A stretch of 64,000 nt of DNA from Crocinitomicaceae bacterium (GCA_037189645.1 JBBCIY010000002.1:460922-524921); one strand, 5' to 3'. Counted from the first letter of the stretch, positions 4,127 through 24,067 are shown. Numbers and translations are program-made. Notes: generated by a model not told the origin, from the letters alone.

Positions 4127-4200
4127 TGCCTGTCAATAAAAACGGACTGGATATAAATTCCGGATAAGCCATCCATATTGGAAATGATTTTTCAACAATT

Positions 4201-4339
4201 ACCACTTTTTACCACTATTATAAAAATCGTTAAAATGCTTTATTTTTCAGTATTTTTTGATAATTTAATGAAACTTTTATTCCTTTGTTGCGTTAATAGT
4301 TATCAACAATTACTATTTTGGTGGTAAAAAGTGGTAAAT
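4201..4339. promoter_or_regulatory. mraZ promoter region with two inverted arrays of GTGGT-N5-GTGGT (MraZ-box-like direct repeats)
   Basis: ACCACTTTTTACCAC at 4201-4215 and its exact reverse complement GTGGTAAAAAGTGGT at 4322-4336, 32 bp upstream of the mraZ ATG. Each is two GTGGT pentamers separated by a 5-nt spacer, resembling the MraZ DRs (GTGGG-N5 repeats) of E. coli. Both copies are preceded by TCAACAATTAC. Confidence 0.45.
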
Positions 4340-4367
4340 AGTCTTTATTTTTACCCATTATTACATC

Positions 4368-5739: not shown

Positions 5740-5756
5740 AAAGGGAAGATTTATCT

Positions 5757-5774
5757 CCCCTCCTTGAGGAGGGG
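5757..5774. repeat. Palindromic intergenic element, copy A (CCCCTCC-TTGA-GGAGGGG)
   Basis: Perfect 7-bp stem with loop TTGA, followed by CGGGGGAGG. Near-identical copy at 12972-12989. No T-run on either side, so not a canonical terminator. Confidence 0.5.
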
Positions 5775-5813
5775 CGGGGGAGGTGACTTTCACTATAAAT
5801 AAAAACAAAAGAG

Positions 5814-6143
5814 ATGAAAAAATTAAAATTATTAACTCTCACAATCATTGCTCTGACAGCAATAATCTTTACTGATGTGAAAGCACAGGAAACGGTTGTT
5901 ATTCGTACGCTGGAAACCCAAGTGAAGCTTATAGGGGATGCTGAGATTGTTACAGTAACTCCTGACGGAAGGGTGGAGCAGACTCTATTGGTAAAAGGAC
6001 CGATGCCAAAAGTTATCGAAGACAATAGTATTCTGATTCGGAATGAGATTGTTAAATGGAGAAATCAGGGATTCAGGATGGTGAGCTCGACAGCGGCAGC
6101 ACACGATAATTTTTTGGTAACAACCTACATCCTTGAAAAATAA
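5814..6143 (+). CDS. Small secreted hypothetical protein inserted between rsmH and ftsL
   Basis: 109 aa with a clear signal peptide (MKKLKLLTLTIIALTAIIFTDVKAQ). Coding-like composition. No recognisable family. Confidence 0.4.
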   Translation: MKKLKLLTLTIIALTAIIFTDVKAQETVVIRTLETQVKLIGDAEIVTVTPDGRVEQTLLVKGPMPKVIEDNSILIRNEIVKWRNQGFRMVSSTAAAHDNFLVTTYILEK

Positions 6144-6176
6144 CACTCTGCGCCCTTTGCACCTTTGCATTAAAAA

Positions 6177-6593
6177 ATGGATAACGAATTTGTAAAAAAG
6201 CCCGAACCGGAAGTGGTGAAAGAAAAGCCACGGAAGTCTGCGAAAAAAAAGGCATCGGCCGATCGTGGAAAAACATCGCGTGCTTTGACGCAGATCCTGA
6301 ACGGAGATTTTTTGACAAAGGAGTTTGTGCTGAACAACCTCAATTTCATCTTCTTTATCATTTTCCTGCTGTTGGTTACCGTAGGGAAAGGATATTACGG
6401 AAAACAGCTCTCCAAAGATGTGGAACGTACGCAAAAGGAGCTGGATGAGGTAACGGCAGAGTACATTGAAGTAAAAGCGAAGCTGGAAGAAGATACACGC
6501 CGGCAGGTGCTGGTAGAGAAGCTGGAAAGCAGAGGGTTGAAGGAAACGGTAAACCCGACCAAAGTGATACGAATTAAAGAAAAGAAAGATTGA
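6177..6593 (+). CDS. ftsL: FtsL-like cell-division protein
   Basis: 138 aa. Lys-rich cytoplasmic N-terminus, single TM (LNNLNFIFFIIFLLLVTVG), then coiled-coil (KELDEVTAEYIEVKAKLEEDTRRQVLVEKLE). Located immediately upstream of ftsI as in dcw clusters. Confidence 0.6.
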   Translation: MDNEFVKKPEPEVVKEKPRKSAKKKASADRGKTSRALTQILNGDFLTKEFVLNNLNFIFFIIFLLLVTVGKGYYGKQLSKDVERTQKELDEVTAEYIEVKAKLEEDTRRQVLVEKLESRGLKETVNPTKVIRIKEKKD

Positions 6594-6618
6594 GATCCTT
6601 CGGGACGATTAACGTGAA

Positions 6619-8727: not shown

Positions 8728-10190
8728 TGGAAAAAGTAGTGAGAGATATAATTTACGGCATTTCCCTGAAGCAGGTGATTGGCTCTGCAGAGGTTTCTGT
8801 CCGCTCATTGACGCTTGACTCCCGGAATGCAGGCGAGGGAAGCCTGTTCTTTGCTGTCAGCGGAACCCGTTTCGACGGCCATGATTTCATCCCGCAAGTG
8901 ATCAAGCAGGGCTGTACGGTCATTATTGCAGAAAAAGAAGTTGCCGTTCCGGAAGGAGTAACGCTGATTATTACCCCCAATTCTCACAAGGCGGCAGGAA
9001 TCGTTGCGGGAAATTTTTACGGAGAGCCTTCCAGACAGCTTAAATTAGTGGGAATCACGGGAACGAACGGGAAAACCACCACCACTACGTTATTGTACAA
9101 TTTATTTTCCAGGCTGGGATACAAAACAGGTTTGTTGTCAACGGTGGTGAACAAGATCGGGGAAATGGAGGTTCCGTCCACGCACACCACTCCGGACCCT
9201 GTCGCATTGAATGCGCTGCTGGCAGAGATGGTGGAATCGAACTGTGAATTCTGCTTCATGGAAGTGAGTTCTCATGCCATTCACCAGTACCGCATCGCCG
9301 GGCTGGAATTTGCCGGAGGCGTATTTACCAATATTACACACGATCACCTGGATTATCACAAAACATTCAAAGAATACCTGGATGTCAAAAAACGCTTCTT
9401 TGATGAATTGCCGGCTGCTGCTTTTGCGCTGACAAACATTGATGATAAGAACGGCCGGGTGATGGTGCAGAACACACGTGCGGAGATCGTTACCTATGCA
9501 ATGAAAACACCTGCGGATTACAAAGTAAAGGTGCTGGAAAACCAGTTTTCAGGATTGGTGCTGAACATCAACGGAAAGGAGGTGTGGTCAAGGCTGGTTG
9601 GTGATTTCAATGCGTATAATCTTCTGACGGCTTACGCAGTAAGTATTCTGCTGGGAGAGGACGAAGACGAAGTATTGCGGGTACTGAGCGCTTTGGAGTC
9701 TGTTGAAGGCCGGTTCCAGTATTTCGTATCTGAAAGCGGAGTGGTGGCGATCATCGACTACGCGCATACACCGGACGCGTTGGAAAACGTGTTGAAAACG
9801 ATCGCGAATATCCGTACAAAAAACGAAACACTTTACACCATTGTAGGATGTGGCGGGGACAGGGATAAGGCGAAACGTCCTGAAATGGCACGGATCGCCT
9901 GTGAATGGAGCGACAAAGTGATCCTTACTTCCGATAATCCGCGTTCGGAAGACCCGAACCAGATCATTGAAGAAATGAATGCCGGAGTTCCTGGGTATCA
10001 CTTTAAAAAAACATTGTCAGTAGTGGACAGGAAGCAGGCGATCAAAACAGCGATTTCCATGGCAGAAAAAGGGGACATCATCCTGATTGCGGGGAAAGGG
10101 CACGAAAAATACCAGGAGATCAATGGCGTGAAGCACGACTTTGACGACCGGCAGATAGCGTTTGAATTGTTTGAACAAATGAAAAATTAA
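8724..10190 (+). CDS. murE: UDP-N-acetylmuramoyl-L-alanyl-D-glutamate--2,6-diaminopimelate ligase MurE
   Basis: 488 aa. Mur ligase P-loop GITGTNGKTTTT. DNPR motif (TSDNPRSEDP) indicating meso-DAP specificity. Overlaps the ftsI stop. Confidence 0.95.
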   Translation: MMEKVVRDIIYGISLKQVIGSAEVSVRSLTLDSRNAGEGSLFFAVSGTRFDGHDFIPQVIKQGCTVIIAEKEVAVPEGVTLIITPNSHKAAGIVAGNFYGEPSRQLKLVGITGTNGKTTTTTLLYNLFSRLGYKTGLLSTVVNKIGEMEVPSTHTTPDPVALNALLAEMVESNCEFCFMEVSSHAIHQYRIAGLEFAGGVFTNITHDHLDYHKTFKEYLDVKKRFFDELPAAAFALTNIDDKNGRVMVQNTRAEIVTYAMKTPADYKVKVLENQFSGLVLNINGKEVWSRLVGDFNAYNLLTAYAVSILLGEDEDEVLRVLSALESVEGRFQYFVSESGVVAIIDYAHTPDALENVLKTIANIRTKNETLYTIVGCGGDRDKAKRPEMARIACEWSDKVILTSDNPRSEDPNQIIEEMNAGVPGYHFKKTLSVVDRKQAIKTAISMAEKGDIILIAGKGHEKYQEINGVKHDFDDRQIAFELFEQMKN

Positions 10191-10257
10191 TACTGAATGA
10201 TGAATATTGAATGGGGCATTCTGTATTCAATATTCATCATTCAAAATTAAAAAAGTT

Positions 10258-11502
10258 ATGTTGTACTATTTATTTAATTACTTAGACGAGCTGAACTTCC
10301 CGGGAGCAGGACTGTTCGATTACATTTCTTTCAGAGCTGCGATGGCGTTGATTACATCGCTGATCATTTCCATCATCTTCGGAAAACGCATCATCAATTT
10401 ATTGCGCAAGCAGCAGATCGGTGAAACGGTTCGTGACCTGGGCCTGCAGGGACAGCTTGAAAAGTCAGGAACCCCGACAATGGGCGGGATCATCATTCTG
10501 AGCGCGATCTTTGTCCCGACATTATTGTTCGCAAAGCTCGATAACATCTACGTGATTACGATGCTGATCGCAACGATCTGGCTGGGAACGATCGGTTTTC
10601 TGGACGACTACATCAAAGTATTCAGGAAGAACAAGGAAGGGCTTGCCGGCAGATTCAAGATTGTAGGCCAGGTTGGAGTCGGGTTGATCGTCGGGTGCAT
10701 GTTGTATTTCTCCGATGATGTAAAAGTGCATAAGAAAGTTTCTGCGGATTACGAGATCCAGACCGATGAGCGGGTTGTTACGCACATGCATGCAGACGCA
10801 GGCGACGGTATGATGTGGATAGAAGCGGATCACATGACCACGACCATTCCGTTCATCAAAGGAAATGAATTCAATTACAACTGGCTGCTGGGAGAAAACG
10901 GGAGCACACCTTATGGCTGGCTGATCTTCATCCCGATCGTGATCTTTATTGTGACGGCCGTTTCCAATGGAGCGAACATGACGGATGGACTGGACGGACT
11001 GGCAACGGGAACGTCAGCGATCATCGGTATTGCCCTGGCGGTCCTGGCGTACGTGAGCTCACACGTAAAATTCGCGGACTACCTGAATGTAATGTACATC
11101 CCGCACGCGGAAGAAATGGTAATTTTCATTTCGGCATTTGTCGGAGCATGCGTCGGTTTCCTCTGGTACAATTCTTACCCTGCCCAGGTTTTTATGGGAG
11201 ATACCGGGAGTCTCGCATTGGGAGGGATCATTGCCGTTTTCGCGATCGCTATCCGCAAAGAGTTATTGATTCCGGTATTGTGCGGTGTGTTCCTGATTGA
11301 GAATTTATCTGTGATGATGCAGGTCGGCTATTTCAAATACACCAAAAAGAAATTCGGGGAAGGAAGGCGGATCTTCAGGATGGCTCCACTGCATCACCAT
11401 TACCAGAAACTGGGGATGCATGAAGCCAAGATCGTTGCCCGCTTCTGGATCGTTGCGGTCTTGCTGGCAGTGATCTCCATTGTAACCCTGAAAGTGAGAT
11501 AA
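10258..11502 (+). CDS. mraY: Phospho-N-acetylmuramoyl-pentapeptide transferase MraY
   Basis: Canonical MraY start MLYYLFNYL; the six-frame ORF starts further upstream at 10207. Multiple TMs, DD and HHH(YQ) motifs ([11 protein letters not shown]). Contains the long periplasmic insertion typical of Bacteroidota MraY. Confidence 0.9.
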
Positions 11503-11503
11503 G

Positions 11504-12853
11504 ATGAAGCCGTACGGAACGAAATACATTGTTGTCCTGGGCGCCGGTGAATCCGGTGTGGGAGCAGCCATTCTTGCGAAGAAAGAAGGGTGGGATGTGT
11601 TCGTATCTGATTACGGGACTATCAAGAATTCGTTCCGGCAGGAACTGGATGAAAGAGGGATTGAATGGGAAGAAGGAAAACACACCGAAGAACGTGTTTT
11701 AAATGCTGAGATCGTGGTGAAATCCCCGGGAATACCGGATAAATCACCGATCATAAAAAAACTGAAGGAAAAAAAGATCCCGGTGATCTCCGAAATTGAG
11801 TTTGCAGGGTACTACAATACGGCAAAAACGATTTGTATCACGGGAAGCAACGGCAAAACGACTACAACCATGCTTACTTACCACATCCTGAAAAAAGCAG
11901 GGATCAGGGTAGGGTTGGCCGGAAACGTGGGGCAGAGCTTTGCCAAGCAGGTAGCGGAAGAATCAGTTGACTGGTATGTGATCGAGCTGAGCTCTTTCCA
12001 GCTGGACGGGATGTTTGACTTCAAAGCCGATATCGCGATTTTGACGAACATCACACCGGATCACCTGGACCGCTATGAATACCAGCTGCAAAACTATGTG
12101 GACAGCAAGTTCCGCATTTTGCAGAACATGACTCAGTACGATTGGTTCATTTACAATGCAGATGACAAGATCATCGAAGAGGAGATGGCCCGGCGTACGG
12201 TTGCGGCGCAACTTGCGCCATTCTCACTGAACAGGGAACTGGAGCAGGGAGGATACTTAAAAGACGAACAAATAACAATAACAACTAATAAAGAACAATT
12301 CACTATGTCAATTCATGAATTAGCCTTAAAAGGGAAGCACAACGCACAAAATTCGTTAGCTTCCGGAATCGCATCCCGTTTACTGGAGATCCGAAAAGAA
12401 ACTGTACGCGAAAGTCTTTCCGACTTCGTGAACGTTGAACACCGTTTGGAATTCGTTGCCAAAGTGCACGGAATAGAGTTCATCAACGACTCAAAAGCGA
12501 CAAACGTGAACTCAACCTGGTTTGCTTTGGAAAGCATGGAGAAGCCGACTGTATGGATCGTTGGCGGTGTGGACAAAGGAAACGACTACTCTGAACTAAC
12601 CGGATTGGTGCGGGACCGTGTAAAAGCAATCATCTGCCTGGGGGTGGACAATTCCAAGATCATTGAAGCATTTACGGGAGTGGTGGACACGATCGTTGAA
12701 GCGAGATCGGCAATGGAAGCTGTGGCTTATGGTTACCGCCTGGCAAAAAAGGATGAAACAGTATTGCTCTCACCGGCTTGCGCATCCTTCGACCTGTTTG
12801 AAAACTACGAAGAAAGAGGAAACTTATTCAAAGAAGCGGTAAGAGCGCTTTGA
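11504..12853 (+). CDS. murD: UDP-N-acetylmuramoylalanine--D-glutamate ligase MurD
   Basis: 449 aa. Mur ligase P-loop ITGSNGKTTTT and Rossmann N-domain. Follows mraY with a 1-bp gap. Confidence 0.95.
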   Translation: MKPYGTKYIVVLGAGESGVGAAILAKKEGWDVFVSDYGTIKNSFRQELDERGIEWEEGKHTEERVLNAEIVVKSPGIPDKSPIIKKLKEKKIPVISEIEFAGYYNTAKTICITGSNGKTTTTMLTYHILKKAGIRVGLAGNVGQSFAKQVAEESVDWYVIELSSFQLDGMFDFKADIAILTNITPDHLDRYEYQLQNYVDSKFRILQNMTQYDWFIYNADDKIIEEEMARRTVAAQLAPFSLNRELEQGGYLKDEQITITTNKEQFTMSIHELALKGKHNAQNSLASGIASRLLEIRKETVRESLSDFVNVEHRLEFVAKVHGIEFINDSKATNVNSTWFALESMEKPTVWIVGGVDKGNDYSELTGLVRDRVKAIICLGVDNSKIIEAFTGVVDTIVEARSAMEAVAYGYRLAKKDETVLLSPACASFDLFENYEERGNLFKEAVRAL

Positions 12854-12971
12854 CCAGCTACTTTCTGAATTGATACAGTTTTTTAGATAAATGCATGTGT
12901 GGAACATTCATTCCACGCGGATTGTTTCGGCCGTTTCTGTTGCGCTGCTGCATCTTGCAGGAACGGCTGTT

Positions 12972-12989
12972 CCTCTCCTTGAGGAGAGG
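12972..12989. repeat. Palindromic intergenic element, copy B (CCTCTCC-TTGA-GGAGAGG)
   Basis: Perfect 7-bp stem with loop TTGA, followed by CCGGGAG. Shares the core CTCCTTGAGGAG with copy A at 5757-5774. No flanking T-run. Confidence 0.5.
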
Positions 12990-13028
12990 CCGGGAGAAAA
13001 AACATAGCCCGATAAAATGTTTGTCAGA

Positions 13029-13060
13029 TAAAAAAATCCTCCGTCGTTCAACAGAGGATC
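13029..13060 (-). terminator. Rho-independent terminator of the YoaK-like gene
   Basis: On the minus strand GATCCTC-N12-GAGGAT is followed by TTTTTTT (plus-strand A-run 13030-13036), 46 bp past the stop of the 13107-13892 gene. Confidence 0.5.
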
Positions 13061-13106
13061 ACTTATCATTAACACATGTTTAGTTAAAAAGAATGAAAGG
13101 CTGGTT

Positions 13107-13892
13107 TTAGTTATGCTCTGCCAGCTGCGGCTCTTTCCGCGCCATTCGCTTCAGTTCCCGTTCCTGCCGGTGCCTTTTCAAAATGAATTTGAAGTAACGG
13201 ATCTTTGAGAAATCATACAGCAGCACGATAACAAGAACAAAGCAGACAATGTAAAAGATCTTGAATTTTATGATGTTGAAGTAATAGCTTGCTACGATTG
13301 CTCCGACAACATATGATATGAAGATCGAAAAGATCAGTTTCGCCTTGTCTTTGATCACCTGGTTGTTTCGGAAACGTTTTTTGGTGAACATCGAAAAGAA
13401 GATCCCCAGGTCAGTGGTTGCACCTGTAAGGTGTGTTGTCTTTACCGAGAAATTCGAGATGCTTGCAGTGAGCCCGTTCTGGAGTCCCATCGCAAAGAGC
13501 ATGACGGACACCAGGACTTCTGTTTCCCGGAGTGTTTCCTGGTAAAAGAAATCGCCGTAGATCCCGATGAACATCAGGCACAGGATTTCCAGGACGATGG
13601 GCAGTGAATGTGCCAGGTACGTGTTTCTGTTATTGAGAGAAATCACGATCAGGTTGGAAACGAATCCGCCGAAGAAAAACAGGAAGATCCACGACAGAAC
13701 GATCAGTACCTGGTATATGTTCCCTTTTACGATCTCGGAAGCCAGGATGGCATAATATCCCGTCACATTCGAAGTGAATGAGAAAAAGATGATAAGTGAG
13801 GAGACATTTACCATTCCCGCTACGAACGCCGTGAGGATTCCCAGCTTGAGGTTGTCGTTCAAAGATCTGTGTTGACTATATTTTCTAAGCAT
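13107..13892 (-). CDS. YoaK/DUF1275-family inner-membrane protein
   Basis: 261 aa, polytopic. DUF1275 hallmarks (TGNxxxxA, HLTGATTDLG). First gene of the insert that splits the dcw cluster. Confidence 0.7.
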   Translation of the reverse strand: MLRKYSQHRSLNDNLKLGILTAFVAGMVNVSSLIIFFSFTSNVTGYYAILASEIVKGNIYQVLIVLSWIFLFFFGGFVSNLIVISLNNRNTYLAHSLPIVLEILCLMFIGIYGDFFYQETLRETEVLVSVMLFAMGLQNGLTASISNFSVKTTHLTGATTDLGIFFSMFTKKRFRNNQVIKDKAKLIFSIFISYVVGAIVASYYFNIIKFKIFYIVCFVLVIVLLYDFSKIRYFKFILKRHRQERELKRMARKEPQLAEHN

Positions 13893-13926
13893 TTTGAATG
13901 ATTAATATAAATGAGCAAAGTGATTG

Positions 13927-14397
13927 TTAATGATTGCATCTTTTGAAGGTCATGCTCGCCAGCCCCTTTACCTGGATGTCCAGCTCAAAGCTCAGGGACA
14001 GGGAGTCTTTGCTGATGTGTGTAATTTTGTAATGTTCCAATGGTCTGTTATTCTCATCTTTTATCACCAGCATATCGCCTTTTCCTTTCAATCGCCAGTG
14101 CAAGACCTGAGGCTCTTTATTCGCGGAAGAGATGTGCAATTTCCCGCTCGGGAGAAAAGACCACGTTTCATGTTCATGCAATACCAATCCTTTTCCGAGG
14201 TATCCTTTCAGTGTGCTGGAAAGTGAATCCTTGCAGACGTTTTTCTTTTGTTCGGGTGAAGCTGCCCGCTCATACTTCCACGAAGATTCATTCCAGTCTC
14301 CTGTGATCAGATCCTCAGGACTGTTCATATTGATCCTCATAAATGAGTACCCGATAATGCAGATTGTCAGGAAAATGAAAATATAACTCAATCTCAT
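13927..14397 (-). CDS. Hypothetical exported/lipoprotein-like protein
   Basis: 156 aa with an N-terminal hydrophobic signal (MRLSYIFIFLTICIIGYS). No family recognised. Confidence 0.45.
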   Translation of the reverse strand: MRLSYIFIFLTICIIGYSFMRINMNSPEDLITGDWNESSWKYERAASPEQKKNVCKDSLSSTLKGYLGKGLVLHEHETWSFLPSGKLHISSANKEPQVLHWRLKGKGDMLVIKDENNRPLEHYKITHISKDSLSLSFELDIQVKGLASMTFKRCNH

Positions 14398-14400
14398 GAT

Positions 14401-14898
14401 TTACGATAGTTTAACTGTATTCAGGAACAATTCCGAAAAACTTTCCGTATTTTCTTCCTGCTTTTCGGTGAACTGGACGAGTGAAACGTTTTCGCAGCAC
14501 TTGTGGATGTAAGGTGCCAGGTCGAAGCTGCGTTTTGTGGCTTTCCTGTTGTTCAATCCCACCGGGATGTACACATTGTCAATCCGGTTGCTGGAAATAT
14601 AGGATTTAAAAGCCCTCTTGTTCAATCCATGGAACAGGTCGATCTTTACCTGGCTGAGCTGTGAAGCGTACTTGTTTTTTAATAAGTCACAACCTTCATA
14701 GAACGAGGGGGGAACGATCTGGTTCAGGATGTCTTTCTTGGAGTGAAAGAGCAGGTCGGAAATGCTGTCGGTCAGGTAATAACCGTGCAGCAGTGTGATT
14801 GTTGCGGTTTCTCCGTCTTTCAGATCGTGGACCACTTTTTTGATGATGTTCAGTGAATCCATTTGAAAATCCGTAGGTATTAAAACATTTTTATGCAT
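14401..14898 (-). CDS. Universal stress protein (UspA)-like protein
   Basis: 165 aa. N-terminus MHKNVLIPTDFQMDSLNIIKKVV matches the USP start pattern (MKKILVPTDFS...). Size and alpha/beta profile are consistent, but the ATP-binding motif is degenerate. Confidence 0.4.
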   Translation of the reverse strand: MHKNVLIPTDFQMDSLNIIKKVVHDLKDGETATITLLHGYYLTDSISDLLFHSKKDILNQIVPPSFYEGCDLLKNKYASQLSQVKIDLFHGLNKRAFKSYISSNRIDNVYIPVGLNNRKATKRSFDLAPYIHKCCENVSLVQFTEKQEENTESFSELFLNTVKLS

Positions 14899-15008
14899 CG
14901 CGTATAAGTTTATTTTGTTTACGATGCAAAAATGAATCAGCCAGATTAGAGAGAAATAAGAACGGGATTAGAATTCACTTAAAATTACATTAGAATGAGA
15001 TTAGAAAA

Positions 15009-16361
15009 TCAGTGCTGAGGACAAATCGGAAGATTGATTCTTACGATGGTTCCCTGGTTTACAGCAGATTGAACGAAGATCTCGCCTTTGTGCAGGTCGA
15101 TGATGTTCCTGGTGAGCGGCAGCCCGATTCCGAAACCTTCGTATGTTTTTGTATTGGACGCCCGGAAGAACGGATCGTAGATGAATTTCAGCTCTTCTGT
15201 CGGGATCCCGATGCCCGAATCGTTGATAAGGATATAAACCGCCTTGTCGGAAGCTCCGATTGATACGATGACTTCCTGGTAATTGGAGTATTTGCTGGCG
15301 TTGGTGATGATGTTGGAAAGTGCCAGCTGCAACAACTGATAGTTTCCTTTTACTTTCAGCTTTTTCGGGTTTTCGGGCAATAAAGAGACATTGATGGTAA
15401 TCGAATGGCGCTTGTCCAGCTTTTCAACCAGTTCTTTCGTGTCCCACACCAACTGGTCTATCCTGAGAACATCCTCTTTCTGAACCGTTCCGTTAAATCC
15501 CGTCTGGGCCAGGGCCAGCAAAGCCCGGGTTTTCCCGTCGAGGTTTTCCGCCTCTTCCAGGATAACAGCGATCGTTTCCTTGTATTCTTCCGTGGTCCGT
15601 TCTTTTGCCAGCGCGAGGTCTGCTTCACCGATAATGGTCGTGAGCGGGGTTCTCAGCTCGTGAGAAGCATTGCTCACAAAATTGTTCTGGATCTCAAAGG
15701 CCGTTTCGATCCGGTTCAGCATCTGGTTGAATGTGTCGGCCAGCTCGTTGACTTCATCATTGACAATTTTGGTCGGAAGCCGCAAATGAAGGTTTTCGGA
15801 GCTGATCTGCTTAACCCGTTCCGTAATCTTTACGATAGGGCTGAAAAGATACCTGGATAAAACGAATGAAAAGAACAATGCCAGGAGCAGCGAGATGATG
15901 AATGTATAGATCAGCAGCTGAAACAGGAAAAGATTCAGGTTTCCTTCCAGGTAATTTTCCGCACCGGCAACGATAACATAGTTCTGGGCATCTTTCTGGG
16001 ACTTATGCAGGATTCCGATGTATTTGATCCCGTTTTTTGAAAAATAAGCGGTCTTGTTCTTGATTATTTCGTTTAAAAACCGGGTATCTACCCCGATGGA
16101 ATCCGCCACCGTTTTTAAGTTCTGATCGACGGGAAAATAAAAGTCCTGCTCGTGGAACAGCTTGTCGGATGCCTCTGTTCCGATCGATTCCTGCTGGTCT
16201 ATTGTCCAGCTGGCAATGGATTTTGCCCTTAATTCCAGCAAGGTGTTAAAATCTTTCTCCAGCTGGCGGGAAACGGAAAAATACACGATCATTGAAATCA
16301 GCAGGATCAGTAAAACAAAGACACTCATTAACAGCAGGATGGTTTTACTTTTATTCTTCAT
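15009..16361 (-). CDS. Two-component sensor histidine kinase
   Basis: 450 aa. Two TMs flanking a periplasmic domain. H-box NASHELRTPLTTI. HATPase_c N/G1/G2 boxes (LSNIITNASKYS, DSGIGIP, GFGIGLPL). Confidence 0.85.
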   Translation of the reverse strand: MKNKSKTILLLMSVFVLLILLISMIVYFSVSRQLEKDFNTLLELRAKSIASWTIDQQESIGTEASDKLFHEQDFYFPVDQNLKTVADSIGVDTRFLNEIIKNKTAYFSKNGIKYIGILHKSQKDAQNYVIVAGAENYLEGNLNLFLFQLLIYTFIISLLLALFFSFVLSRYLFSPIVKITERVKQISSENLHLRLPTKIVNDEVNELADTFNQMLNRIETAFEIQNNFVSNASHELRTPLTTIIGEADLALAKERTTEEYKETIAVILEEAENLDGKTRALLALAQTGFNGTVQKEDVLRIDQLVWDTKELVEKLDKRHSITINVSLLPENPKKLKVKGNYQLLQLALSNIITNASKYSNYQEVIVSIGASDKAVYILINDSGIGIPTEELKFIYDPFFRASNTKTYEGFGIGLPLTRNIIDLHKGEIFVQSAVNQGTIVRINLPICPQH

Positions 16362-16364
16362 GTC

Positions 16365-17063
16365 TTATTTCTCCTTCATAATATACCCCATTCCGATCAC
16401 GGTATGAATCAGCTTAGGCTCAAAATTCTGATCGATCTTTTTTCTCAGGTAGTTCACATAGACATCTACCACGTTTGTCCCGAGGTTGAAATTCAGTCCC
16501 CACACATTTTCCAGGATATCCATCCGGGATAAAACAATGTTTTTATTTTCCAGGAAATACATCAGCAAGCGGTATTCCGTACTGGTAAGATTGATCTCCG
16601 TATCGTCCCGCATGACTTTCTTGGCATTGTCATCCACAGTAAGGTTCAGGAACTGGTGCGTATGCGAGTTGGTGGTTGCCGGCTGCTCTCCGCTGAACAG
16701 TTCCGTTCTGCGCAAAAGTGTTTTTATCCTCGCCAGGAACTCAATGAACTTAAAGGGTTTGACAATATAGTCATCCGCGCCGGTGTTCAATCCCAGTACG
16801 ATGTTTTCCGAAGTCCCCAATGCGGTCAGGAACAGAACGGGGATGGTTGTATTCACTTCCCGGATCAGCTTGCACAGTTCGATTCCGTTCTTCCCCGGGA
16901 GCATGATGTCCAGGATGATCAGGTCGAACTGGTTCTGCCTGAACATGTCCCAGCCAATATCGCCGTCAAAGGCGACAGAAACATCATATCCTTCTTCTGC
17001 CAGGCCTTTTTTGATAAAAGACGCAACATGTGCTTCATCTTCTACTAGCAATATTTTTTTCAT
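16365..17063 (-). CDS. OmpR/PhoB-family response regulator
   Basis: 232 aa. Receiver domain (LLVEDEAHV...DLIILDIMLPGKNG). C-terminal winged-helix Trans_reg_C (LTSTEYRLLMYFLENKNIVLSRMDILENVWG). 3-bp gap to the kinase gene, consistent with an operon. Confidence 0.85.
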   Translation of the reverse strand: MKKILLVEDEAHVASFIKKGLAEEGYDVSVAFDGDIGWDMFRQNQFDLIILDIMLPGKNGIELCKLIREVNTTIPVLFLTALGTSENIVLGLNTGADDYIVKPFKFIEFLARIKTLLRRTELFSGEQPATTNSHTHQFLNLTVDDNAKKVMRDDTEINLTSTEYRLLMYFLENKNIVLSRMDILENVWGLNFNLGTNVVDVYVNYLRKKIDQNFEPKLIHTVIGMGYIMKEK

Positions 17064-17327
17064 CGAACGCTATACATGGATATCTGCAAAAATAGGAAAA
17101 ATGAAATAAAGTAGCGAAACACCTTTCAGATGAACGATACAGCCCCGGCCATTTTTACATACCCGGTTTCCAGTCAGTGTTTTAATTTCTTGTTAAGCGA
17201 TTTAATTTGCTTATAATCAATTGTTTGATTTGGTTCTGGTTAATGGGTCTTTAAATCTATTTTAAGAATGCAGTTAACATACAGTTTGGAATTACAAACC
17301 ATCTACATTTGTGTCGTTCAATAAAGT

Positions 17328-19172
17328 TTGAATCGTAATAATCAATTGTATATGAGTAGAATGCAATTAGTTCAGACCAGGGATATCTACCGGGCTGCCA
17401 GGCTGAACAAGCTGGGGTTGCTGGGGATGCCGGTCGCGTGGAGTGTAAAGAACATAAGCGGATTGGCGAAGGCAAATAAAATCTATGCCCGGGGGTTTGA
17501 GAAGAATACGACTGAGTTCCTGCAATTTGTCATTGACGATCTGAATATCGATTTTGAGCTGTACGAAGAGGATCTGAAGCGGATTCCCAAAGAAGGCCCG
17601 TTTGTCATTGTATCCAATCACCCGCTTGGCGCACTGGATGGCATCCTGATGATGCATGTTATCTCAAAGATCCGCCCGGATTTTAAAATAATGGGAAACT
17701 TCTTACTACATAAGATCAAACCGCTCGAACCGATGGTAATCGCTGTGAACCCGTTTGAGACAAGAAAAGAAAAGTTCAGCAGCAGCAAAGGGATCCGGGA
17801 AGCGATCGCGCACATCAAAGATGGCGGTTGTCTTGGAATGTTTCCCGCGGGTGAGGTTTCCGGGAAAGACAAAGATGGTGTGATCAACGACCGGGAATGG
17901 CAGAAGTCGGCCATAAAGCTGGTGCGAAAGCTCAATGTTCCGGTAGTTCCGATGTATTTTCATTCAAGAAACAGCGAATTTTTCTACAGGATGGCAAAAT
18001 TGCATCCGAACCTGCAGACAGCATTGCTGCCAAAAGAAGCTGTCCGTACACGTATGAAACCGGTCTGCATCCGCATCGGGAAGCCTGTTTCATGCAAACA
18101 GCAGGAGGAATTTGAAGATGTACAATCGTTGTCGGCTTTCCTGAGGAAGAAAACCTATTCACTTTCCAACTATTATTCCGGGAAGAAAAAACGGCTGATG
18201 AAGAAGCTCAACATTCCGAAACAGATCCACATCAACAGCAGGTCCCGGAAACCGAAACCGGTCGTTGAGGAGACACCTCATAATTTATTAATTGCCGAAT
18301 TGAATGAACTGCGTTCAAGGGACAAAAAACGGATGTTTGTCAGTAATAATTTTGAGTGCTATTTCGCCAAAGCGAAGGAAATTCCTGGCATCCTGAGGGA
18401 AATAGGGCGTTTGCGGGAGCTGACCTACCGTGAGGTGGGAGAAGGTACGAACCGGGAGATTGACCTCGACCGTTACGACGTGCATTACAACCATTTGTTC
18501 CTGTGGGACACTGATACCGAACGAATTGTAGGCGCTTACCGGATGGCACTGGGCAAAAAAGTATACGAACGATACGGAACAGAAGGATTTTACATGAACG
18601 AGCTGTTTCATTTTGAACCCGAATTCAGGCCGTTCTTTTCTCAATGCATTGAAATGGGGCGTGCGTTTGTCGTTTCCGACTACCAGCAGAAACCCATGCC
18701 TTTGTTTTTATTGTGGCGGGGAGTTGTCCATGTTACATTGCGGAATCCTTCGCATAAATACATTATCGGGAGTGTAAGCATCAGTAACCGGTTTTCCGAT
18801 TTTTCAAAGTCGCTGATGGTGGAATTTATGAAATCGCACTACTACGATCCATACGTGGCACAGTTCGTCCGGGCGAAGAACGAATTCAAGATCCGGCTCA
18901 GGGATGAAGACAAGGATTTCTTTCTTGGAGACAATGATGCGGACCTGAACAAATTTGACAAGCTGATCGACGAGCTGGAACCTGCTTTGCGGCTGCCGGT
19001 ACTTGCAAAAAAATACATCAAGCAGAATGCCCGGGTGATAGGCTTCAACGTCGATCCGAAATTCAACGATGCCGTCGATGGACTGATGTATATCCGGATC
19101 AGCAACCTGCCCGAAAGTACTGTCAAACCTGTATTTGACGAACTACAGGCCGAGATCTGCCGCCAGTTGTGA
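17328..19172 (+). CDS. olsF: OlsF-like bifunctional lipoamino-acid (ornithine/glycine lipid) acyltransferase
   Basis: 614 aa. N-terminal PlsC-type O-acyltransferase (VSNHPLGALDG H-x5-D variant; FPAGEVS). C-terminal hemolysin/OlsB-like N-acyltransferase (Acetyltransf_5-like: LRELTYREVGEGTNREIDLDRYD...FYMNELF). Same domain order as OlsF described in Serratia and Flavobacterium. Confidence 0.7.
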   Translation: MNRNNQLYMSRMQLVQTRDIYRAARLNKLGLLGMPVAWSVKNISGLAKANKIYARGFEKNTTEFLQFVIDDLNIDFELYEEDLKRIPKEGPFVIVSNHPLGALDGILMMHVISKIRPDFKIMGNFLLHKIKPLEPMVIAVNPFETRKEKFSSSKGIREAIAHIKDGGCLGMFPAGEVSGKDKDGVINDREWQKSAIKLVRKLNVPVVPMYFHSRNSEFFYRMAKLHPNLQTALLPKEAVRTRMKPVCIRIGKPVSCKQQEEFEDVQSLSAFLRKKTYSLSNYYSGKKKRLMKKLNIPKQIHINSRSRKPKPVVEETPHNLLIAELNELRSRDKKRMFVSNNFECYFAKAKEIPGILREIGRLRELTYREVGEGTNREIDLDRYDVHYNHLFLWDTDTERIVGAYRMALGKKVYERYGTEGFYMNELFHFEPEFRPFFSQCIEMGRAFVVSDYQQKPMPLFLLWRGVVHVTLRNPSHKYIIGSVSISNRFSDFSKSLMVEFMKSHYYDPYVAQFVRAKNEFKIRLRDEDKDFFLGDNDADLNKFDKLIDELEPALRLPVLAKKYIKQNARVIGFNVDPKFNDAVDGLMYIRISNLPESTVKPVFDELQAEICRQL

Positions 19173-19349
19173 TCCGGAGGAGCGAAGCGACTTTTTAGCA
19201 GGAAGACAGGGAAAAAATACATTCGTTCAGCCCTCCGGGTACGGATCATGCATTTCGGCTGTAAGGAGCCTCAACCGGTTATTATCACTGCATTGTTCAT
19301 AACCAAATTTCATTGCTTTCCATCAAAAAACCTAAAACCTTAATTTTGT

Positions 19350-19841
19350 TTGTCTTTCTATGTAAAAGCACAAAGAGAAACTATGAAACAGGTACAAACA
19401 AATCATAATTTACTGGAGGCCAGAAAAAAGGCGCTGGAAAATGTGGTTAACGGCTCCATACGCCCGCATGGGAAACTCTGGGGAATGGACGTGTTTTCCT
19501 GGGGAAATCCGCATACAGAGCTGATTGCCTCTACCATTCATTCATTTCCTTTCCCGGTCATCTGGCTTGCATCTTCTGAGCTGCTGGCAGCGGTCGTATC
19601 GTTTGATGCGGCTGTATTGAGGAATGCCCACGCGGTCATTTCGTATGCCGGTGGAGCATTGGATGAAGATAAATTCCGTGATGTACCTCATGTTGTTACA
19701 ACAAACGATGTAGAAACAGCGTTTCAGAAGATGAACGAATTGCGTTTGAAAAGAGGTGTTATTTTGTTTTGTCATGCGGGAACGGATGCCGAGCATTATG
19801 AAAATGCATTCAAAGCATACCTTGAACTTCACCAAATATAA
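19350..19841 (+). CDS. Hypothetical protein immediately upstream of ftsW
   Basis: 163-aa ORF (alternative start at 19383, MKQVQ...). Its stop overlaps the ftsW start. No recognisable domain. Confidence 0.4.
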   Translation: MSFYVKAQRETMKQVQTNHNLLEARKKALENVVNGSIRPHGKLWGMDVFSWGNPHTELIASTIHSFPFPVIWLASSELLAAVVSFDAAVLRNAHAVISYAGGALDEDKFRDVPHVVTTNDVETAFQKMNELRLKRGVILFCHAGTDAEHYENAFKAYLELHQI

Positions 19842-21079
19842 TGGACATGGCCGATAATGCAGCAATCATAACATCTAATCCCATATCGGTAAGGCGATTT
19901 TTAAATTACCTCAAAGGTGACCGGGTGATATGGATCATTACATTGCTGATGATGGCATTTTCCCTTGTTACGGTCTTCAGCTTTGTTCCTGTGCTTGTTA
20001 AAGTGGAGGGAGGGACACCGTTTAAGTACCTGTTCAAGCATTTCATCTATATCCTGATCAGCTTTACGGCAATGTTCTGGGTGCACCGGCAGGATCCCAG
20101 GTATTTTTCCCAGGTGTCGAAATTCGCCTTTATACTGGGGATCGGGTTGCTGCTGCTGACGCTTGTTCTTCCCAATGAAGTAAACAACGCAAAACGGTGG
20201 ATCCGCGTTCCGTTCATCGGCTTGACCTTCCAGGCATCTGATTTTGCAAAGCTCGCATTGATCATGTATCTGTCCCGTCAGCTGGTAAAACGCAAGGCGC
20301 AGTTCCTCGACTGGAAAGAAGGTTTTTTGCCGATCGTTGCTCCGATCGTGCTGGTTTGCGGACTGATCGTGAAGGACAATTTTTCAACCGCGGGAATCGT
20401 CTTTATGCTTTCCGTAGCGCTGCTTTTTCTGGGAAAATTTCCTTTTTCACGTCTCCTTGCCATATTCGGAGCGGCCATCGGGGGATTGCTGCTCATTGTG
20501 CTCATTCACAAAGCGCTTCCCGATTTAAACATCCTGCCCCGTTATACAACCTGGGAAAACCGTATCCTGAACCGGATGGATACAGAGAGCAATGTCGTTG
20601 ACAATGCGCAGGCGGTCAATGCCAAACTGGCGATTTACAATGGAAAATTATTCGGGCAGGGAGTAGGAGACGGGAAGCTGAAAGAATTTTTGCCCGAGGC
20701 CTATGCCGATTTTTATTATTCATCGTTTGTCGAGGAATTTGGTTCCATTGCGGCGCTCATATTGGCACTGGCCTACCTGATCCTGCTGTTCAGGGTCATA
20801 CGGATAGGATTGAAATCCGAACATTTATTTGAAACGTATCTATGCATCGGGATCGGGATGCTGATCCTCACCCAGGCGTCTGTCAATATGCTGGTATGCA
20901 CGGGAGTTTTTCCTGTCACCGGGCAGAACATGCCGCTGCTGGCAATGGGAGGGTCTGCGATGATCATGACCTGTGTTTCACTCGGAATGATCCAGTCCAT
21001 TGCGGCAAAACAGGACAAAGGCAGAAAAGCTGCCACGAAAGAAGGTAATGACAACGAATTGATAAACGAAGCAGAATGA
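19841..21079 (+). CDS. ftsW: Peptidoglycan glycosyltransferase FtsW (SEDS family)
   Basis: 412 aa. About 10 TMs and SEDS motifs (RWIRVPFIGLTFQASDFAKLALIMYLS; GGSAMIMTCVSLGM). Confidence 0.9.
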   Translation: MDMADNAAIITSNPISVRRFLNYLKGDRVIWIITLLMMAFSLVTVFSFVPVLVKVEGGTPFKYLFKHFIYILISFTAMFWVHRQDPRYFSQVSKFAFILGIGLLLLTLVLPNEVNNAKRWIRVPFIGLTFQASDFAKLALIMYLSRQLVKRKAQFLDWKEGFLPIVAPIVLVCGLIVKDNFSTAGIVFMLSVALLFLGKFPFSRLLAIFGAAIGGLLLIVLIHKALPDLNILPRYTTWENRILNRMDTESNVVDNAQAVNAKLAIYNGKLFGQGVGDGKLKEFLPEAYADFYYSSFVEEFGSIAALILALAYLILLFRVIRIGLKSEHLFETYLCIGIGMLILTQASVNMLVCTGVFPVTGQNMPLLAMGGSAMIMTCVSLGMIQSIAAKQDKGRKAATKEGNDNELINEAE

Positions 21080-22170
21080 AACGAGTAATCATTTCCGGCG
21101 GAGGGACCGGGGGGCATATTTTTCCCGCTGTCGCGATAGCAGACGAGCTGAAAAGGCAATTTCCCCAGGTTGACATTCTGTTCATTGGTGCGGAAGGTAA
21201 AATGGAAATGGAAAAAGTTCCGCAGGCCGGGTACAGGATCATCGGGTTGCCGATCGTAGGTTTGCAACGAAAGCTGACATTGAAAAACCTTGCTTTACCG
21301 TTTAAGATCATTAAAAGCATGGTGATGGCAAGAAAGACGATCAGGGAATTCGGCCCTGAGGTGGTGATCGGAGTCGGAGGATATGCTTCCGGGCCAACGC
21401 TGAAAACTGCTTCCATGCTCGGAATCCCGACGTTGGTGCAGGAGCAGAATTCCTTTGCCGGAAAGACAAACATGCTGCTTGCAAAGAAAGCGGATCGGTT
21501 ATGTGTTGCTTATGACGGGATGGAAAAATTCTTTCCGGAAGAGAAAATAGTTTTAACAGGAAATCCCGTTCGGCTGGAAGTGACCCGGATTGAAGGAAAA
21601 CGGAGCGAAGCGTTTGAATTTTACGGGTTGGATGCGTCAAAGCCGGCTATCCTGGTGATCGGAGGTTCACTTGGTGCGAGAACACTGAATGAATCCCTGG
21701 CCGGGGGAATTGAAAAATTACAGCAGCAGGGGATTCAGGTGCTGTGGCAGTGCGGTAAATTATACTATGATGAATTGACCAACCGTTTGAAAGGAAAAGA
21801 CTTGAAAGGAATTCACCTGACGCAATTCATTTCCCGGATGGACCTGGCGTATGCGCTGGCAGATGTGATCGTATCCCGTGCAGGTGCGATTTCCGTATCT
21901 GAGTTGTGTCTTGTCCGAAAACCCGCGATCCTGGTTCCTTCTCCCAACGTGGCGGAAGATCACCAGACGCACAACGCGATGGCATTGGTCAGCAGACAGG
22001 CGGCAATTTTGGTGAAAGATATTGACGCAAAAAGTACATTGATTGACGAAGCGATTAAATTAATTAATGATAAAGAATTACAATCGAAATTATCACAGAA
22101 CATTGCACAATTAGGAAAGCCAAACGCGACAAAGGATATTGTAGGGGAAATCTTGAAAATACGAAAATAG
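21076..22170 (+). CDS. murG: UDP-GlcNAc:undecaprenyl-PP-MurNAc-pentapeptide GlcNAc transferase MurG
   Basis: 364 aa. GT28 N- and C-domains. GGTGGHIFPA G-loop and DHQTHNA motif. Overlaps the ftsW stop. Confidence 0.95.
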   Translation: MKRVIISGGGTGGHIFPAVAIADELKRQFPQVDILFIGAEGKMEMEKVPQAGYRIIGLPIVGLQRKLTLKNLALPFKIIKSMVMARKTIREFGPEVVIGVGGYASGPTLKTASMLGIPTLVQEQNSFAGKTNMLLAKKADRLCVAYDGMEKFFPEEKIVLTGNPVRLEVTRIEGKRSEAFEFYGLDASKPAILVIGGSLGARTLNESLAGGIEKLQQQGIQVLWQCGKLYYDELTNRLKGKDLKGIHLTQFISRMDLAYALADVIVSRAGAISVSELCLVRKPAILVPSPNVAEDHQTHNAMALVSRQAAILVKDIDAKSTLIDEAIKLINDKELQSKLSQNIAQLGKPNATKDIVGEILKIRK

Positions 22171-22217: not shown

Positions 22218-22655
22218 ATGCCGAAACGAATCAATATAATACGAATCATTGCTGTCACCGCATTTGTGATATATGTGGTCAGCTTGTTGTTCCCGTATCA
22301 ATATTACAGGGATTACGGTTATTATGAAGAAGGGATTCGTTATTATCCTTCGGGAAAGGGGTATTATTCCGACTATGTTCTTTTTTTGGTCTTCTTTATT
22401 CCTGTACTCGTGTTTTTGCTGGTACGGCATACATTGGCCATGAAAGCCTTTTCATTGATCGCCTGTTCACTATTGTTCGTTTTTGCATGCCTGGCATGGA
22501 GCGAGGATTTTTCAGGAGAATATTCCAAACCCGGAATAGGATTCTATTTATTCTTGCTCAGTGTAGTCACACTGTTGATCCTCTCGGTTATAAAACTTCG
22601 GATACCTGTTCCGAGAAGAATGAGAAAGAACAACGAATTATTGGATGATTTTTGA
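22218..22655 (+). CDS. Hypothetical small membrane protein between murG and murC
   Basis: 145 aa with 4 predicted TMs. No family recognised. Coding-like codon usage. Confidence 0.45.
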   Translation: MPKRINIIRIIAVTAFVIYVVSLLFPYQYYRDYGYYEEGIRYYPSGKGYYSDYVLFLVFFIPVLVFLLVRHTLAMKAFSLIACSLLFVFACLAWSEDFSGEYSKPGIGFYLFLLSVVTLLILSVIKLRIPVPRRMRKNNELLDDF

Positions 22656-22681: not shown

Positions 22682-24067
22682 ATGGACATCAGGAAAATAA
22701 ATATCAGTTTAAGTGCTTTTGAAAACATCTATTTCTTGGGAATAGGTGGTATCGGGATGTCCGCGCTTGCCCGTTATTTCAAATCCCTCGGGTGGAATGT
22801 GGCGGGCTATGACAAAACACCTTCTCCTCTGACTGCATCCCTGCAAAGCGAAGGAATTGATGTGCATTACGAAGACCGTAATTCAAGTATCATATCGCCA
22901 TATTGCGATAAGGCGAAAACATTGGTGGTAATAACACCCGCCATTCCGAAAAATATGGGGGAATTACTTCATTTTCAATTCAATGAATTTGAAATTGTAA
23001 AACGCTCCGAAGTGTTGGGGTTGATCACGCAAACGTCGAAAGGGCTTGGAGTTGCAGGTACACACGGAAAAACAACGACAAGCACCATGCTGGCGCACAT
23101 CCTGGACCAGTCGGAAGTCAAGTGTACCGCTTTTTTAGGAGGGATTTCTGCCAATTTCAATTCAAATTTAGTTTTGAATCCGGGGGCTGAATATACCGTG
23201 ATCGAAGCAGACGAATTTGACCGTTCTTTTCTTCGTTTGTCTCCGTTTGCAAGCATTATTACATCTGCCGATCCGGATCACCTGGATATTTACGGCGATG
23301 CGGCTCATTTCAGGGAAGGGTTTGAGTTGTACGCAGGCCTGCATCCTGAAAATGGTATTGTTATTCAGCGTTATGGGTTGAATCTTCCAACTCCGGCAGC
23401 AACATACACGTATGCGGTCGGAAATGCGGAAGCAGATTTTAACGGATATGATCTCAGGTACGAAAATGAGCGTTTTTTAATGAACGTTACGCTGCCCTAT
23501 GAAGGAATGACAGATGTTGAACTGGGAATCCCCGGCTGGCACAATGCGGAAAATGCAGTTGGTTGTATTGCTTTGTGCTATGAGTTGGGACTGGATTTAG
23601 ACACAATCAGAGAAGGTTTACGAACTTTCAGAGGAGTAAAGCGCCGTTTTGAATACATTGTAAAATCGCAGGATTTAATATATATCGACGATTATGCACA
23701 TCATCCGACCGAGATAAAAGCCTTGATCGGTTCCATCCGCCTGATGTACCCGGGCAGAAACGTAACGGGTGTTTTTCAGCCTCATCTGTTTACACGCACC
23801 CGTGATTTTTTCGATGGATTTGCAGAGCAGCTTTCGCGCCTGGATGAAGTGATACTGATGCCGGTATATCCTGCCAGGGAAGAGCCGATTGCAGGTGTTA
23901 CAAGCGATGCGCTGCTCGAAAAGATAACTGCCGGGAAAAAGCAGGTATTATCCCCCGATGAGGTTGTTTCGTACCTATCCGGGAAGAAAGAAGGGGTATT
24001 CCTGACGATCGGGGCGGGAGACATCGACCGGATTGTTGATCGGCTAAAAACAGGATGGAGTGAATAA
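22682..24067 (+). CDS. murC: UDP-N-acetylmuramate--L-alanine ligase MurC
   Basis: 461 aa. YFLGIGGIGMSALA N-domain. P-loop VAGTHGKTTTSTM. Confidence 0.95.
   Translation: MDIRKINISLSAFENIYFLGIGGIGMSALARYFKSLGWNVAGYDKTPSPLTASLQSEGIDVHYEDRNSSIISPYCDKAKTLVVITPAIPKNMGELLHFQFNEFEIVKRSEVLGLITQTSKGLGVAGTHGKTTTSTMLAHILDQSEVKCTAFLGGISANFNSNLVLNPGAEYTVIEADEFDRSFLRLSPFASIITSADPDHLDIYGDAAHFREGFELYAGLHPENGIVIQRYGLNLPTPAATYTYAVGNAEADFNGYDLRYENERFLMNVTLPYEGMTDVELGIPGWHNAENAVGCIALCYELGLDLDTIREGLRTFRGVKRRFEYIVKSQDLIYIDDYAHHPTEIKALIGSIRLMYPGRNVTGVFQPHLFTRTRDFFDGFAEQLSRLDEVILMPVYPAREEPIAGVTSDALLEKITAGKKQVLSPDEVVSYLSGKKEGVFLTIGAGDIDRIVDRLKTGWSE

Follow-up and report, generated by a model that had tools for sequence, protein, structure and literature searches.

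A lineage-specific insertion between murD and ftsW in the division and cell wall gene cluster of a Crocinitomicaceae clade

The window analyzed here, a stretch of 64,000 nucleotides from Crocinitomicaceae bacterium (GCA_037189645.1 JBBCIY010000002.1:460922-524921), contains a division and cell wall (dcw) gene cluster which is interrupted between murD and ftsW by about 6.4 kb of inserted DNA (positions ~12854–19278). The interruption is real and confined to one genus-level clade of the Crocinitomicaceae (Flavobacteriales). The favored explanation, to which we give a probability of roughly 75%, is a lineage-specific, composite and non-mobile insertion at a dcw junction that was already breakable. 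As a genome rearrangement this is modest, since dcw clusters that are split or interrupted are known already. The novelty consists of the recent gain of unrelated, opposite-strand genes within a Bacteroidota dcw cluster, and a resolved series of states at a single junction, which is marked by a small gene derived from murD. The junction region is made up of the following features, counted from the first nucleotide of the window:

11504–12853, plus strand: murD, final gene of the upstream dcw half (Pfam MurD_N, Mur_ligase_M and Mur_ligase_C)
12896–12919, plus strand: hairpin without a T-tract, 9-bp stem, about 45 nt after the murD stop (terminator scan)
13035–13060, minus strand: intrinsic terminator of the five-gene operon, 11-bp stem and T7 run
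13107–13892, minus strand: DUF1275 (YoaK-type) membrane protein, final gene of the operon (PF06912, E 3.2e-29)
13927–14397, minus strand: 156-aa protein with an N-terminal hydrophobic segment, weakly lipocalin-like (Lipocalin_4, E 0.19 only)
14401–14898, minus strand: 165-aa protein with a putative universal stress protein (USP) fold (AF2 model, pLDDT 85.6)
14945–15006, minus strand: six TTCTAAT-like heptamers in 11-nt phase, in the 110-nt gap between the histidine kinase (HK) and USP-fold genes
15009–16361, minus strand: sensor HK with two transmembrane segments, HAMP, HisKA and HATPase_c (Pfam)
16365–17063, minus strand: OmpR/PhoB-family response regulator (RR), first gene of the operon (Response_reg and Trans_reg_C)
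17087–17094, minus strand: TATTTTTG box, candidate −7 element of the RR operon promoter, 24 nt upstream of the RR start
17304–17311, plus strand: TACATTTG box, candidate olsF promoter, 41 nt upstream of ATG 17352
17352–19172, plus strand: olsF, bifunctional aminolipid synthase of the OlsF family (reading frame opens at TTG 17328, likely start ATG 17352)
19279–19358, plus strand: conserved non-coding block of ~80 nt containing TAATTTTG, candidate promoter of the small gene and ftsW to ftsZ
19341–19348, plus strand: TAATTTTG box, 35 nt before ATG 19383
19383–19841, plus strand: small gene of 152 aa, native to the dcw cluster (likely start ATG 19383; the longest open reading frame (ORF) has 163 aa, from 19350)
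19841–21079, plus strand: ftsW, first canonical gene of the downstream dcw half (PF01098, E 2.4e-63)

The gene content and coordinates between murD and ftsW given in the first-pass annotation were confirmed by the ORF map and by Pfam and NCBIfam searches. Its account of tightly packed mraZ–murD and ftsW–ftsZ blocks with overlaps, of five minus-strand genes with their own terminator and of a 163-aa ORF whose stop overlaps the ftsW start was borne out as well. Reading frames overlap at mraZ/rsmH, ftsI/murE, ftsW/murG and murC/ftsQ, the TAA of the small gene overlaps the ftsW ATG by 1 nt (TAATG), and the terminator at 13035–13060 folds with a free energy (dG) of −21.2 kcal/mol (z −5.4; none of 200 shuffled sequences matched it) and is conserved throughout the clade, compensatory changes included. 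Compared to the canonical Bacteroidota cluster (mraZ-rsmH-ftsL-ftsI-murE-mraY-murD-ftsW-murG-murC-ftsQ-ftsA-ftsZ), all core genes are present on one strand and in the usual order, and the frames within each half overlap or nearly touch; this was established from the ORF map, Pfam/NCBIfam models (murD, ftsW, FtsL_2) and tblastn colinearity with the 80 loci described below, and murD matched TIGR01087 in NCBIfam over its full length (406.6 bits, cut-off 212). While the canonical cluster is unbroken, the five minus-strand genes and olsF here place 6.4 kb between murD and the small gene/ftsW. Extra to the canonical set are also the MurD-C-like small gene before ftsW and two further ORFs, one of 145 aa located between murG and murC, the other of 109 aa located between rsmH and ftsL.

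The rarity of the interruption was judged from a MurD scan with one genome per species, which gave at least 80 loci with 10-kb flanks; the window proteins were mapped onto all 80 loci listed (L numbers), the closest of which belonged to the Flavobacteriales/Crocinitomicaceae (Fluviicola-like). In the 74 species-representative loci holding both genes, murD and ftsW were separated by either 0–145 nt or about 250–660 nt, with a maximum of 658 nt. They adjoined each other, or stood one small ORF apart, in ~25 other Crocinitomicaceae loci and ~45 other Bacteroidota loci. The same minus-strand genes together with olsF were found, among the 80 loci listed, only in L001 (MurD 89% identical). The interruption is therefore real, rare and not family-wide, in agreement with its first description as unusual; the proposed comparison of synteny in relatives showed that neither the family nor the order carries the insert throughout, so that the refuting outcome named in that description did not occur. 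Exact-protein look-ups together with the mapping placed the insert-bearing loci (the window, L001, L124–L127 and L129) in one genus-level clade, whose flanking dcw proteins share ~88–89% identity, against 73–74% with the nearest outgroup loci of the first tree, and whose proteins have source names including 'Crocinitomicaceae bacterium CZZ-1' and 'Fluviicola sp. SGL-29'.

Explaining the pattern by an assembly or binning artefact, or by an interrupted order that was ancestral to the family and lost elsewhere, is extremely improbable. Many of the comparison genomes are metagenome-assembled genomes (MAGs) and the mraY–murD region of L001 is irregular, which would suit an artefact, but NCBI, ENA and Logan assemblies made independently of one another had the identical gene order, on contigs 89–304 kb long, and proteins with the isolate source names CZZ-1 and SGL-29 fell into the same protein clusters. 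Against the ancestral order stands the position of the insert clade, which is nested within many intact lineages and has an intact sister group, so that an ancestral insert would need many independent and precise deletions. The irregular region of L001 (8600–10371) comprises the end of the mraY match at 9547, ~800 extra nt with a 153-aa minus-strand ORF and a murD start at 10356; it could represent an insertion or a MAG assembly problem. The record titled 'Taishania pollutisoli' (L028, MAG T2.bin.118) falls outside the insert clade, with a concatenated identity of 67.6% and an intact junction. Strain CZZ-1, which we take to be the type strain of this species, occurs among the source names of the clade proteins, and the label of the L028 MAG may be wrong.

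The notion of a single ~7-kb insert in the first-pass annotation was correct in that an interruption exists, but not in its unity: the 163-aa ORF is native and the remainder consists of at least two unrelated modules. Homologues of this small gene occupy the murD–ftsW gap in ~25 Crocinitomicaceae loci, and in most of them the distance between the murD stop and the ATG is −1 to 15 nt. The family includes 90 clusters at 90% identity, every one named 'hypothetical' and without Pfam domains, and 138 representatives at 50% identity, all of ~150–160 aa, and its alignment has an invariant GKLWGMDVFSW..P...PF core. In profile comparison the small gene was colinear with MurD from residue ~288 on, with an E-value of 0.07 against a single MurD and 1.7e-4 against an alignment of MurD C-domains, and its product has the Rossmann-like domain-3 fold of the MurD C-terminal domain. 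Unlike the latter, D-Glu-binding domain, the product stands alone, with a length of ~150 aa and neither an ATP-binding nor a UDP-binding domain attached, and the MurD motif NDSKATN is not kept, the aligned position being occupied by the invariant (G)MDVFSW(x)NP. Pfam PF02875 (Mur_ligase_C) did not match the small gene even at E = 10. Less diverged paralogues are found at the same position in L057 (11334–11813), L073 (11359–11928) and L078 (2673–3161). These are 34–38% identical to the MurD C-terminus and have NDSKATN altered to NDSIAIN or NHSASTD, and the one in L057 passes the Pfam Mur_ligase_C model (31.1 bits vs 28.4); the shorter gap ORFs of L064 and L065 still match a MurD-C profile at E ~1e-7. 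The gap-filling homologues, the alignment with MurD-C and the recognizable paralogues show that the small gene is native and arose when part of murD was duplicated; it is a conserved dcw resident that should be excluded from the cargo. A stand-alone MurD-C-like gene occurs between murD and ftsW in many Flavobacteriales and Bacteroidia, strongly diverged in the Crocinitomicaceae but recognizable in others, and without a functional name in the sources checked. Searches of PDB sequences with the small-gene profile and a USP-like profile gave nothing useful, and Pfam and NCBIfam gave no match above threshold for the three small ORFs of the insert and the dcw cluster.

The junction occurs in further states among relatives. 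L135 has a different insert of ~1.5 kb at the same place, with two plus-strand outer membrane protein (OMP)-like genes. In L131, L133 and L134, xseA/xseB and unrelated genes are located upstream of the small gene, while in L136–L138 mraZ–murD is followed by a 149-aa ORF, clpB and prfB; since a single assembly holds L134 and L138 as separate contigs, 477.6 and 68.8 kb long, the dcw cluster is truly split in that clade. All broken-junction genomes were monophyletic with 100/100 bootstraps, both with left-hand (MurE+MraY+MurD) and right-hand (FtsW+MurG+MurC) markers, and their sister group, L139/L140, is intact with a spacer of 17–19 nt. The opening of the junction, common to the L135 lineage and the split clade, thus appears to be older than the cargo of the window. 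The dcw cluster belongs to the most stable gene clusters, and its history has been mainly one of gene loss and delocalization, probably without gene gain, with sub-clusters in Chloroflexi and Planctomycetes and dispersal in Cyanobacteria (PMC8871954). Like in the fragmented clusters of those phyla, sub-cluster synteny is kept and the break is at a junction, L131, L133, L134 and L136–L138 representing a two-locus dcw. In contrast to the published history, the window clade shows a recent gain of unrelated genes inside the cluster, and one junction can be traced within one family from the intact state to a small insert, a large insert and a split. The murD-proximal edge of the insert is variable and represents a continuing cargo hot spot: L001 has a gene for a 794-aa T9SS (type IX secretion system)-sorted FG-GAP protein there (11844–14228, minus strand), while L125 and L127 have an ASCH-like 123-aa gene and a 497-aa gene between murD and DUF1275 (11903–13745, minus strand).

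The inserted DNA itself is composite, its five-gene operon and olsF each having separate homes in other genomes. The complete operon in the same order was found in L132, far from dcw genes and olsF, and the USP-fold, lipocalin-like and DUF1275 genes occur without the RR-HK pair in L128. Orthologues of olsF (40–72% identity) were present in 43 metagenome contigs, in none of them with dcw or two-component system neighbors. The DUF1275 protein, which is 83–84% identical among clade members, 65% to its L132 counterpart and 55% to that of L128, is always encoded downstream of both small genes of the operon, and the 156-aa gene is a conserved partner of the USP-fold and DUF1275 genes in L128 and L132. 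It is therefore unlikely that the 6.4-kb block was acquired horizontally as one genomic island or mobile element that integrated into the dcw cluster, two modules with different homes being difficult to reconcile with it. Such an origin would be in line with the variable extra cargo at the murD-proximal edge and with the rarity of the USP-fold gene, for which a search of 5.8 billion proteins found 18 homologues, 14 of them in the clade and 4 outside at 39–43% identity. However, no integrase, recombinase or transposase domain was detected in the insert genes with Pfam/NCBIfam, neither a tRNA nor flanking direct or inverted repeats were found at the insert, and its GC content of 44.6% does not deviate from that of the dcw halves (46–47%) and the whole window (43.6%), which makes a classical mobile island unlikely. 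Furthermore, olsF is 64–72% identical to its closest non-clade orthologues, similar to the 73–74% of the flanking dcw proteins, as would be expected if a native gene had been relocated inside the genome.

Promoters of Bacteroidetes have a −7 element with the consensus TAnnTTTG. Correctly oriented and clade-conserved boxes of this type are present in both regions that had been proposed to hold promoters (17064–17327 and 19173–19349), from which we infer, for the boxes at 17304 and 19341 as well as for TATTTTTG at 17087, a possible promoter function. The box TACATTTG is invariant in the window, L001, L124, L126 and L129. The block at 19279–19358 is near-identical in the same five loci and more conserved than the small gene; it is found also in L131 of the split clade, with TATTTTTG, and in L135, with TAACTTTG, and is thus common to all three junction states. 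Relatives with an intact junction do not have it, there being no room (spacer −1 to 15 nt in most), and mostly lack TAnnTTTG. The RNA folds of the block (z −0.6) and of the spacer between olsF and the small gene were no better than those of shuffled sequences, leaving a riboswitch or leader reading unsupported, and an Rfam search of 12000–20500 at E <= 1 gave no accepted match, including the conserved block; a match to whalefall-1 at 12969–13001 was rejected (19.7 bits vs 37). A sigma-70 promoter scan (16 matches vs 11.4 expected) was uninformative, being the wrong model for Bacteroidota. The terminator scan and folding gave no clear terminator between olsF and the small gene. The hairpin at 12896–12919, a stretch which folds no better than shuffles (z −0.6), has counterparts of different sequence at the same position in L124, L126 and L129, and could act as a weak terminator or 3'-end stabilizer of the mraZ–murD transcript.

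A composite insertion at a breakable junction would have proceeded in three steps. The starting point is the pattern seen in Crocinitomicaceae, with a small gene, derived from the 3' third of murD, packed tightly between murD and ftsW. The junction between murD and the small gene was then opened, as the tree indicates, once in the ancestor of the subclade; the ~80-nt block with its TAnnTTTG box would have come to lie upstream of the small gene, after which the small gene to ftsZ would have been transcribable without read-through from mraZ–murD. With the two halves independent, the descendants filled or widened the gap differently: the window clade acquired the opposite-strand five-gene operon and olsF on the dcw strand, a sister lineage took in the two OMP-like genes, another clade moved the halves to distant parts of the chromosome, and the murD-proximal edge continues to take up cargo in some members. 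Four transcription units are predicted at the present junction: mraZ to murD, ending in the convergent region 12854–13106; the RR operon, starting near 17090 and stopping at the 13035 terminator; olsF, with the 17304 box as its promoter; and the small gene with ftsW to ftsZ, with the 19341 box as promoter and perhaps also reached by transcripts of olsF, because no clear terminator follows that gene.

Several points weigh against this reconstruction. TAnnTTTG occurs across the window at about the rate expected by chance (58 observed vs 51.6 expected), so the promoter call depends on position and conservation. No plus-strand TAnnTTTG is present in 3038–14021, including the 306-nt spacer before mraZ; the promoter of the upstream dcw half thus departs from the strict motif, which describes the promoters of this organism incompletely. 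The trees were neighbor-joining trees of 3 proteins each, and an order with the promoter first and the cargo later is deduced by parsimony from ~15 genomes; alternatively, the ancestor might already have had the window cargo, which the sister lineages lost or exchanged. Finally, a horizontal origin of the five-gene operon is possible because of the extreme rarity of its USP-fold gene.

The opposite-strand operon, with intergenic gaps of 3, 110, 3 and 34 nt in the ORF map, begins with a two-component system of the OmpR/PhoB type, consisting of an HK with HisKA and HATPase_c and an RR with receiver and Trans_reg_C domains, their genes being 3 nt apart. The best NCBIfam matches were the heavy-metal sensor subfamily TIGR01386 for the HK (196.7 bits, cut-off 292.6) and TIGR01387 for the RR (225.3 bits, cut-off 279.2), and membership in the heavy-metal CusRS/CzcRS subfamily was rejected, both proteins being below the cut-offs. 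For the 165-aa protein, Foldseek against PDB returned USP-family proteins as top matches (E 3.5e-6 to 1e-3, with a TM-score of only ~0.5), while its match to Pfam Usp (PF00582) had E 0.21 and 12.5 bits, below the cut-off of 24.

Phased direct repeats of 7+4 nt are characteristic for PhoB/OmpR-type regulons (pho-box architecture). The window operon resembles these in the winged-helix output domain of its RR and in the heptamers at 11-nt spacing upstream of a TAnnTTTG-like box and three genes, while the heptamer sequence is unrelated to the pho box of E. coli, and the RR and HK are below the cut-offs of every named NCBIfam equivalog. The pattern TTCTAATN4TTCTAAT with 0–2 mismatches had 14 matches in the window, 5 of them overlapping ones inside 14945–15006, and the array is kept in the clade and in the distant L132, where the operon sits at another locus. 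The array is hence a candidate binding site of the RR, through which the system may control its own three downstream genes.

It was considered whether the placement of the cargo is adaptive, so that the two-component system, olsF or both are regulated together with division and wall synthesis, for instance by RR control of olsF or of the unit from the small gene to ftsZ, or by olsF read-through that ties aminolipid synthesis to division. The stability of the arrangement in a clade with flanking proteins of ~88% identity and the missing clear terminator after olsF are compatible with this, as are the PhoB-type control of olsF genes in other bacteria (PMC12971839) and the independent presence of glsA-glsB aminolipid genes beside dcw elsewhere in Bacteroidota. 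Nevertheless, this explanation has a low probability, even somewhat lower than that of the mobile island. The only RR-site-like array lies inside the operon and travels with it in L132, with neither olsF nor dcw genes nearby, whereas no comparable array precedes olsF or the small gene, the pattern search of the window finding only matches with 3 mismatches near them; this repeat-site search gave no indication that the two-component system regulates division genes. In addition, the site has taken up quite different cargo in one sister lineage and has undergone complete fission in another, which makes its content look incidental. The cargo genes thus most likely do ordinary jobs, such as envelope/stress signaling and aminolipid synthesis, as passengers and not as new division regulators.

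The olsF product has an N-terminal O-acyltransferase domain (Acyltransf_2/Acyltransferase, 34–282) and a C-terminal N-acyltransferase domain (Acetyltransf_5, 362–463) in Pfam, i.e., the fused architecture and domain roles described for OlsF (PMC12971839). The best NCBIfam match was NF052615 (402.7 bits, E 2.5e-120), covering 25–563 of 570 positions; as the equivalog cut-off of 620 was not reached, the gene was filed as OlsF family and the head group, which may be ornithine, lysine, glycine or serine-glycine, left unassigned. The ornithine/lysine lipid synthases OlsF of Serratia proteamaculans and Flavobacterium johnsoniae have the same layout of N-terminal O- and C-terminal N-acyltransferase; in contrast to these, the window gene is under the equivalog cut-off, and the placement within dcw is peculiar to its clade. 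An ancestral olsF neighborhood was sought by tblastx of L131 against olsF loci, with no match. In the metagenome contig L100 (1254–5629), an olsF orthologue (54%) is directly followed by a gene for a P-type ATPase 72% identical to that encoded in the window at 29000–31045, where ~1.1 kb with yqeY and a Fur-family gene separate it from ftsZ upstream; this was judged insufficient for an ancestral linkage of olsF and the P-type ATPase. Genes of glycine-lipid synthesis, glsA and glsB (O- and N-acyltransferases), are located just upstream of mraZ and divergent from it in L041 (1174–3054, minus strand) and L044 (913–2925, minus strand), in both cases above the NCBIfam equivalog cut-offs, and the same tblastn pattern was seen in L032, L039, L040, L051, L057 and L062 (Marinilabiliales and Bacteroidia). 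Aminolipid genes have thus become associated with dcw independently in these loci.

The described loci provide a natural series, from the intact junction to one opened with a promoter-like block and further to a small insert, a large insert or full fission. They suggest that dcw order is probably held by transcriptional dependence and that a downstream promoter frees a junction to rearrange, which is testable; ftsW–ftsZ expression in this clade should not be assumed to be under the mraZ promoter, and the cultured isolates within the clade make the transcription question accessible to experiment. The lead most worth following is the MurD-C-domain-only gene, an unannotated candidate cell-wall factor. 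As a tentative suggestion, with the odds rather against it, it might be a new and functionally important divisome or peptidoglycan-precursor factor, a catalytically dead MurD-C copy translationally coupled to the SEDS protein FtsW, with its own promoter enabling cluster rearrangement. If so, it might act as a link between, or a regulator of, the Mur-ligase steps in the cytoplasm and the later steps at the membrane, and its private promoter would be what let a rigid dcw cluster accept insertions and split in the subclade.

The remaining dcw genes of the window, assigned by the ORF map and domain searches unless stated otherwise, are:

4368–4829, plus strand: mraZ
4813–5739, plus strand: rsmH
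5814–6143, plus strand: 109-aa ORF between rsmH and the FtsL_2 gene
6177–6593, plus strand: FtsL_2 gene (domain searches)
6619–8727, plus strand: ftsI
8724–10190, plus strand: murE
10207–11502, plus strand: mraY
21076–22170, plus strand: murG
22218–22655, plus strand: 145-aa ORF with multiple transmembrane segments, between murG and murC
22682–24067, plus strand: murC
ending at 27870, plus strand: ftsQ, ftsA and ftsZ (order from the ORF map and tblastn)

Homologues of the 145-aa ORF take the corresponding position in L124 and L129 (51%, with an additional paralogue at 25%) and in L135 (41%); the ORF is not present in the split clade or the outgroups and thus represents a second clade-specific addition to dcw. 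The 109-aa ORF has a signal-peptide-like N-terminus and no Pfam match, and a 115-aa ORF, 32% identical, takes its position in L124 and L126. Other additions were seen in relatives: a DUF1016/YhcG-type gene between murE and mraY in L136 and L137 (7708–8742), and a GH16 glycoside hydrolase gene between ftsA and ftsZ in L131 (16321–17160), L133 (11472–12347) and L135 (19578–20414).

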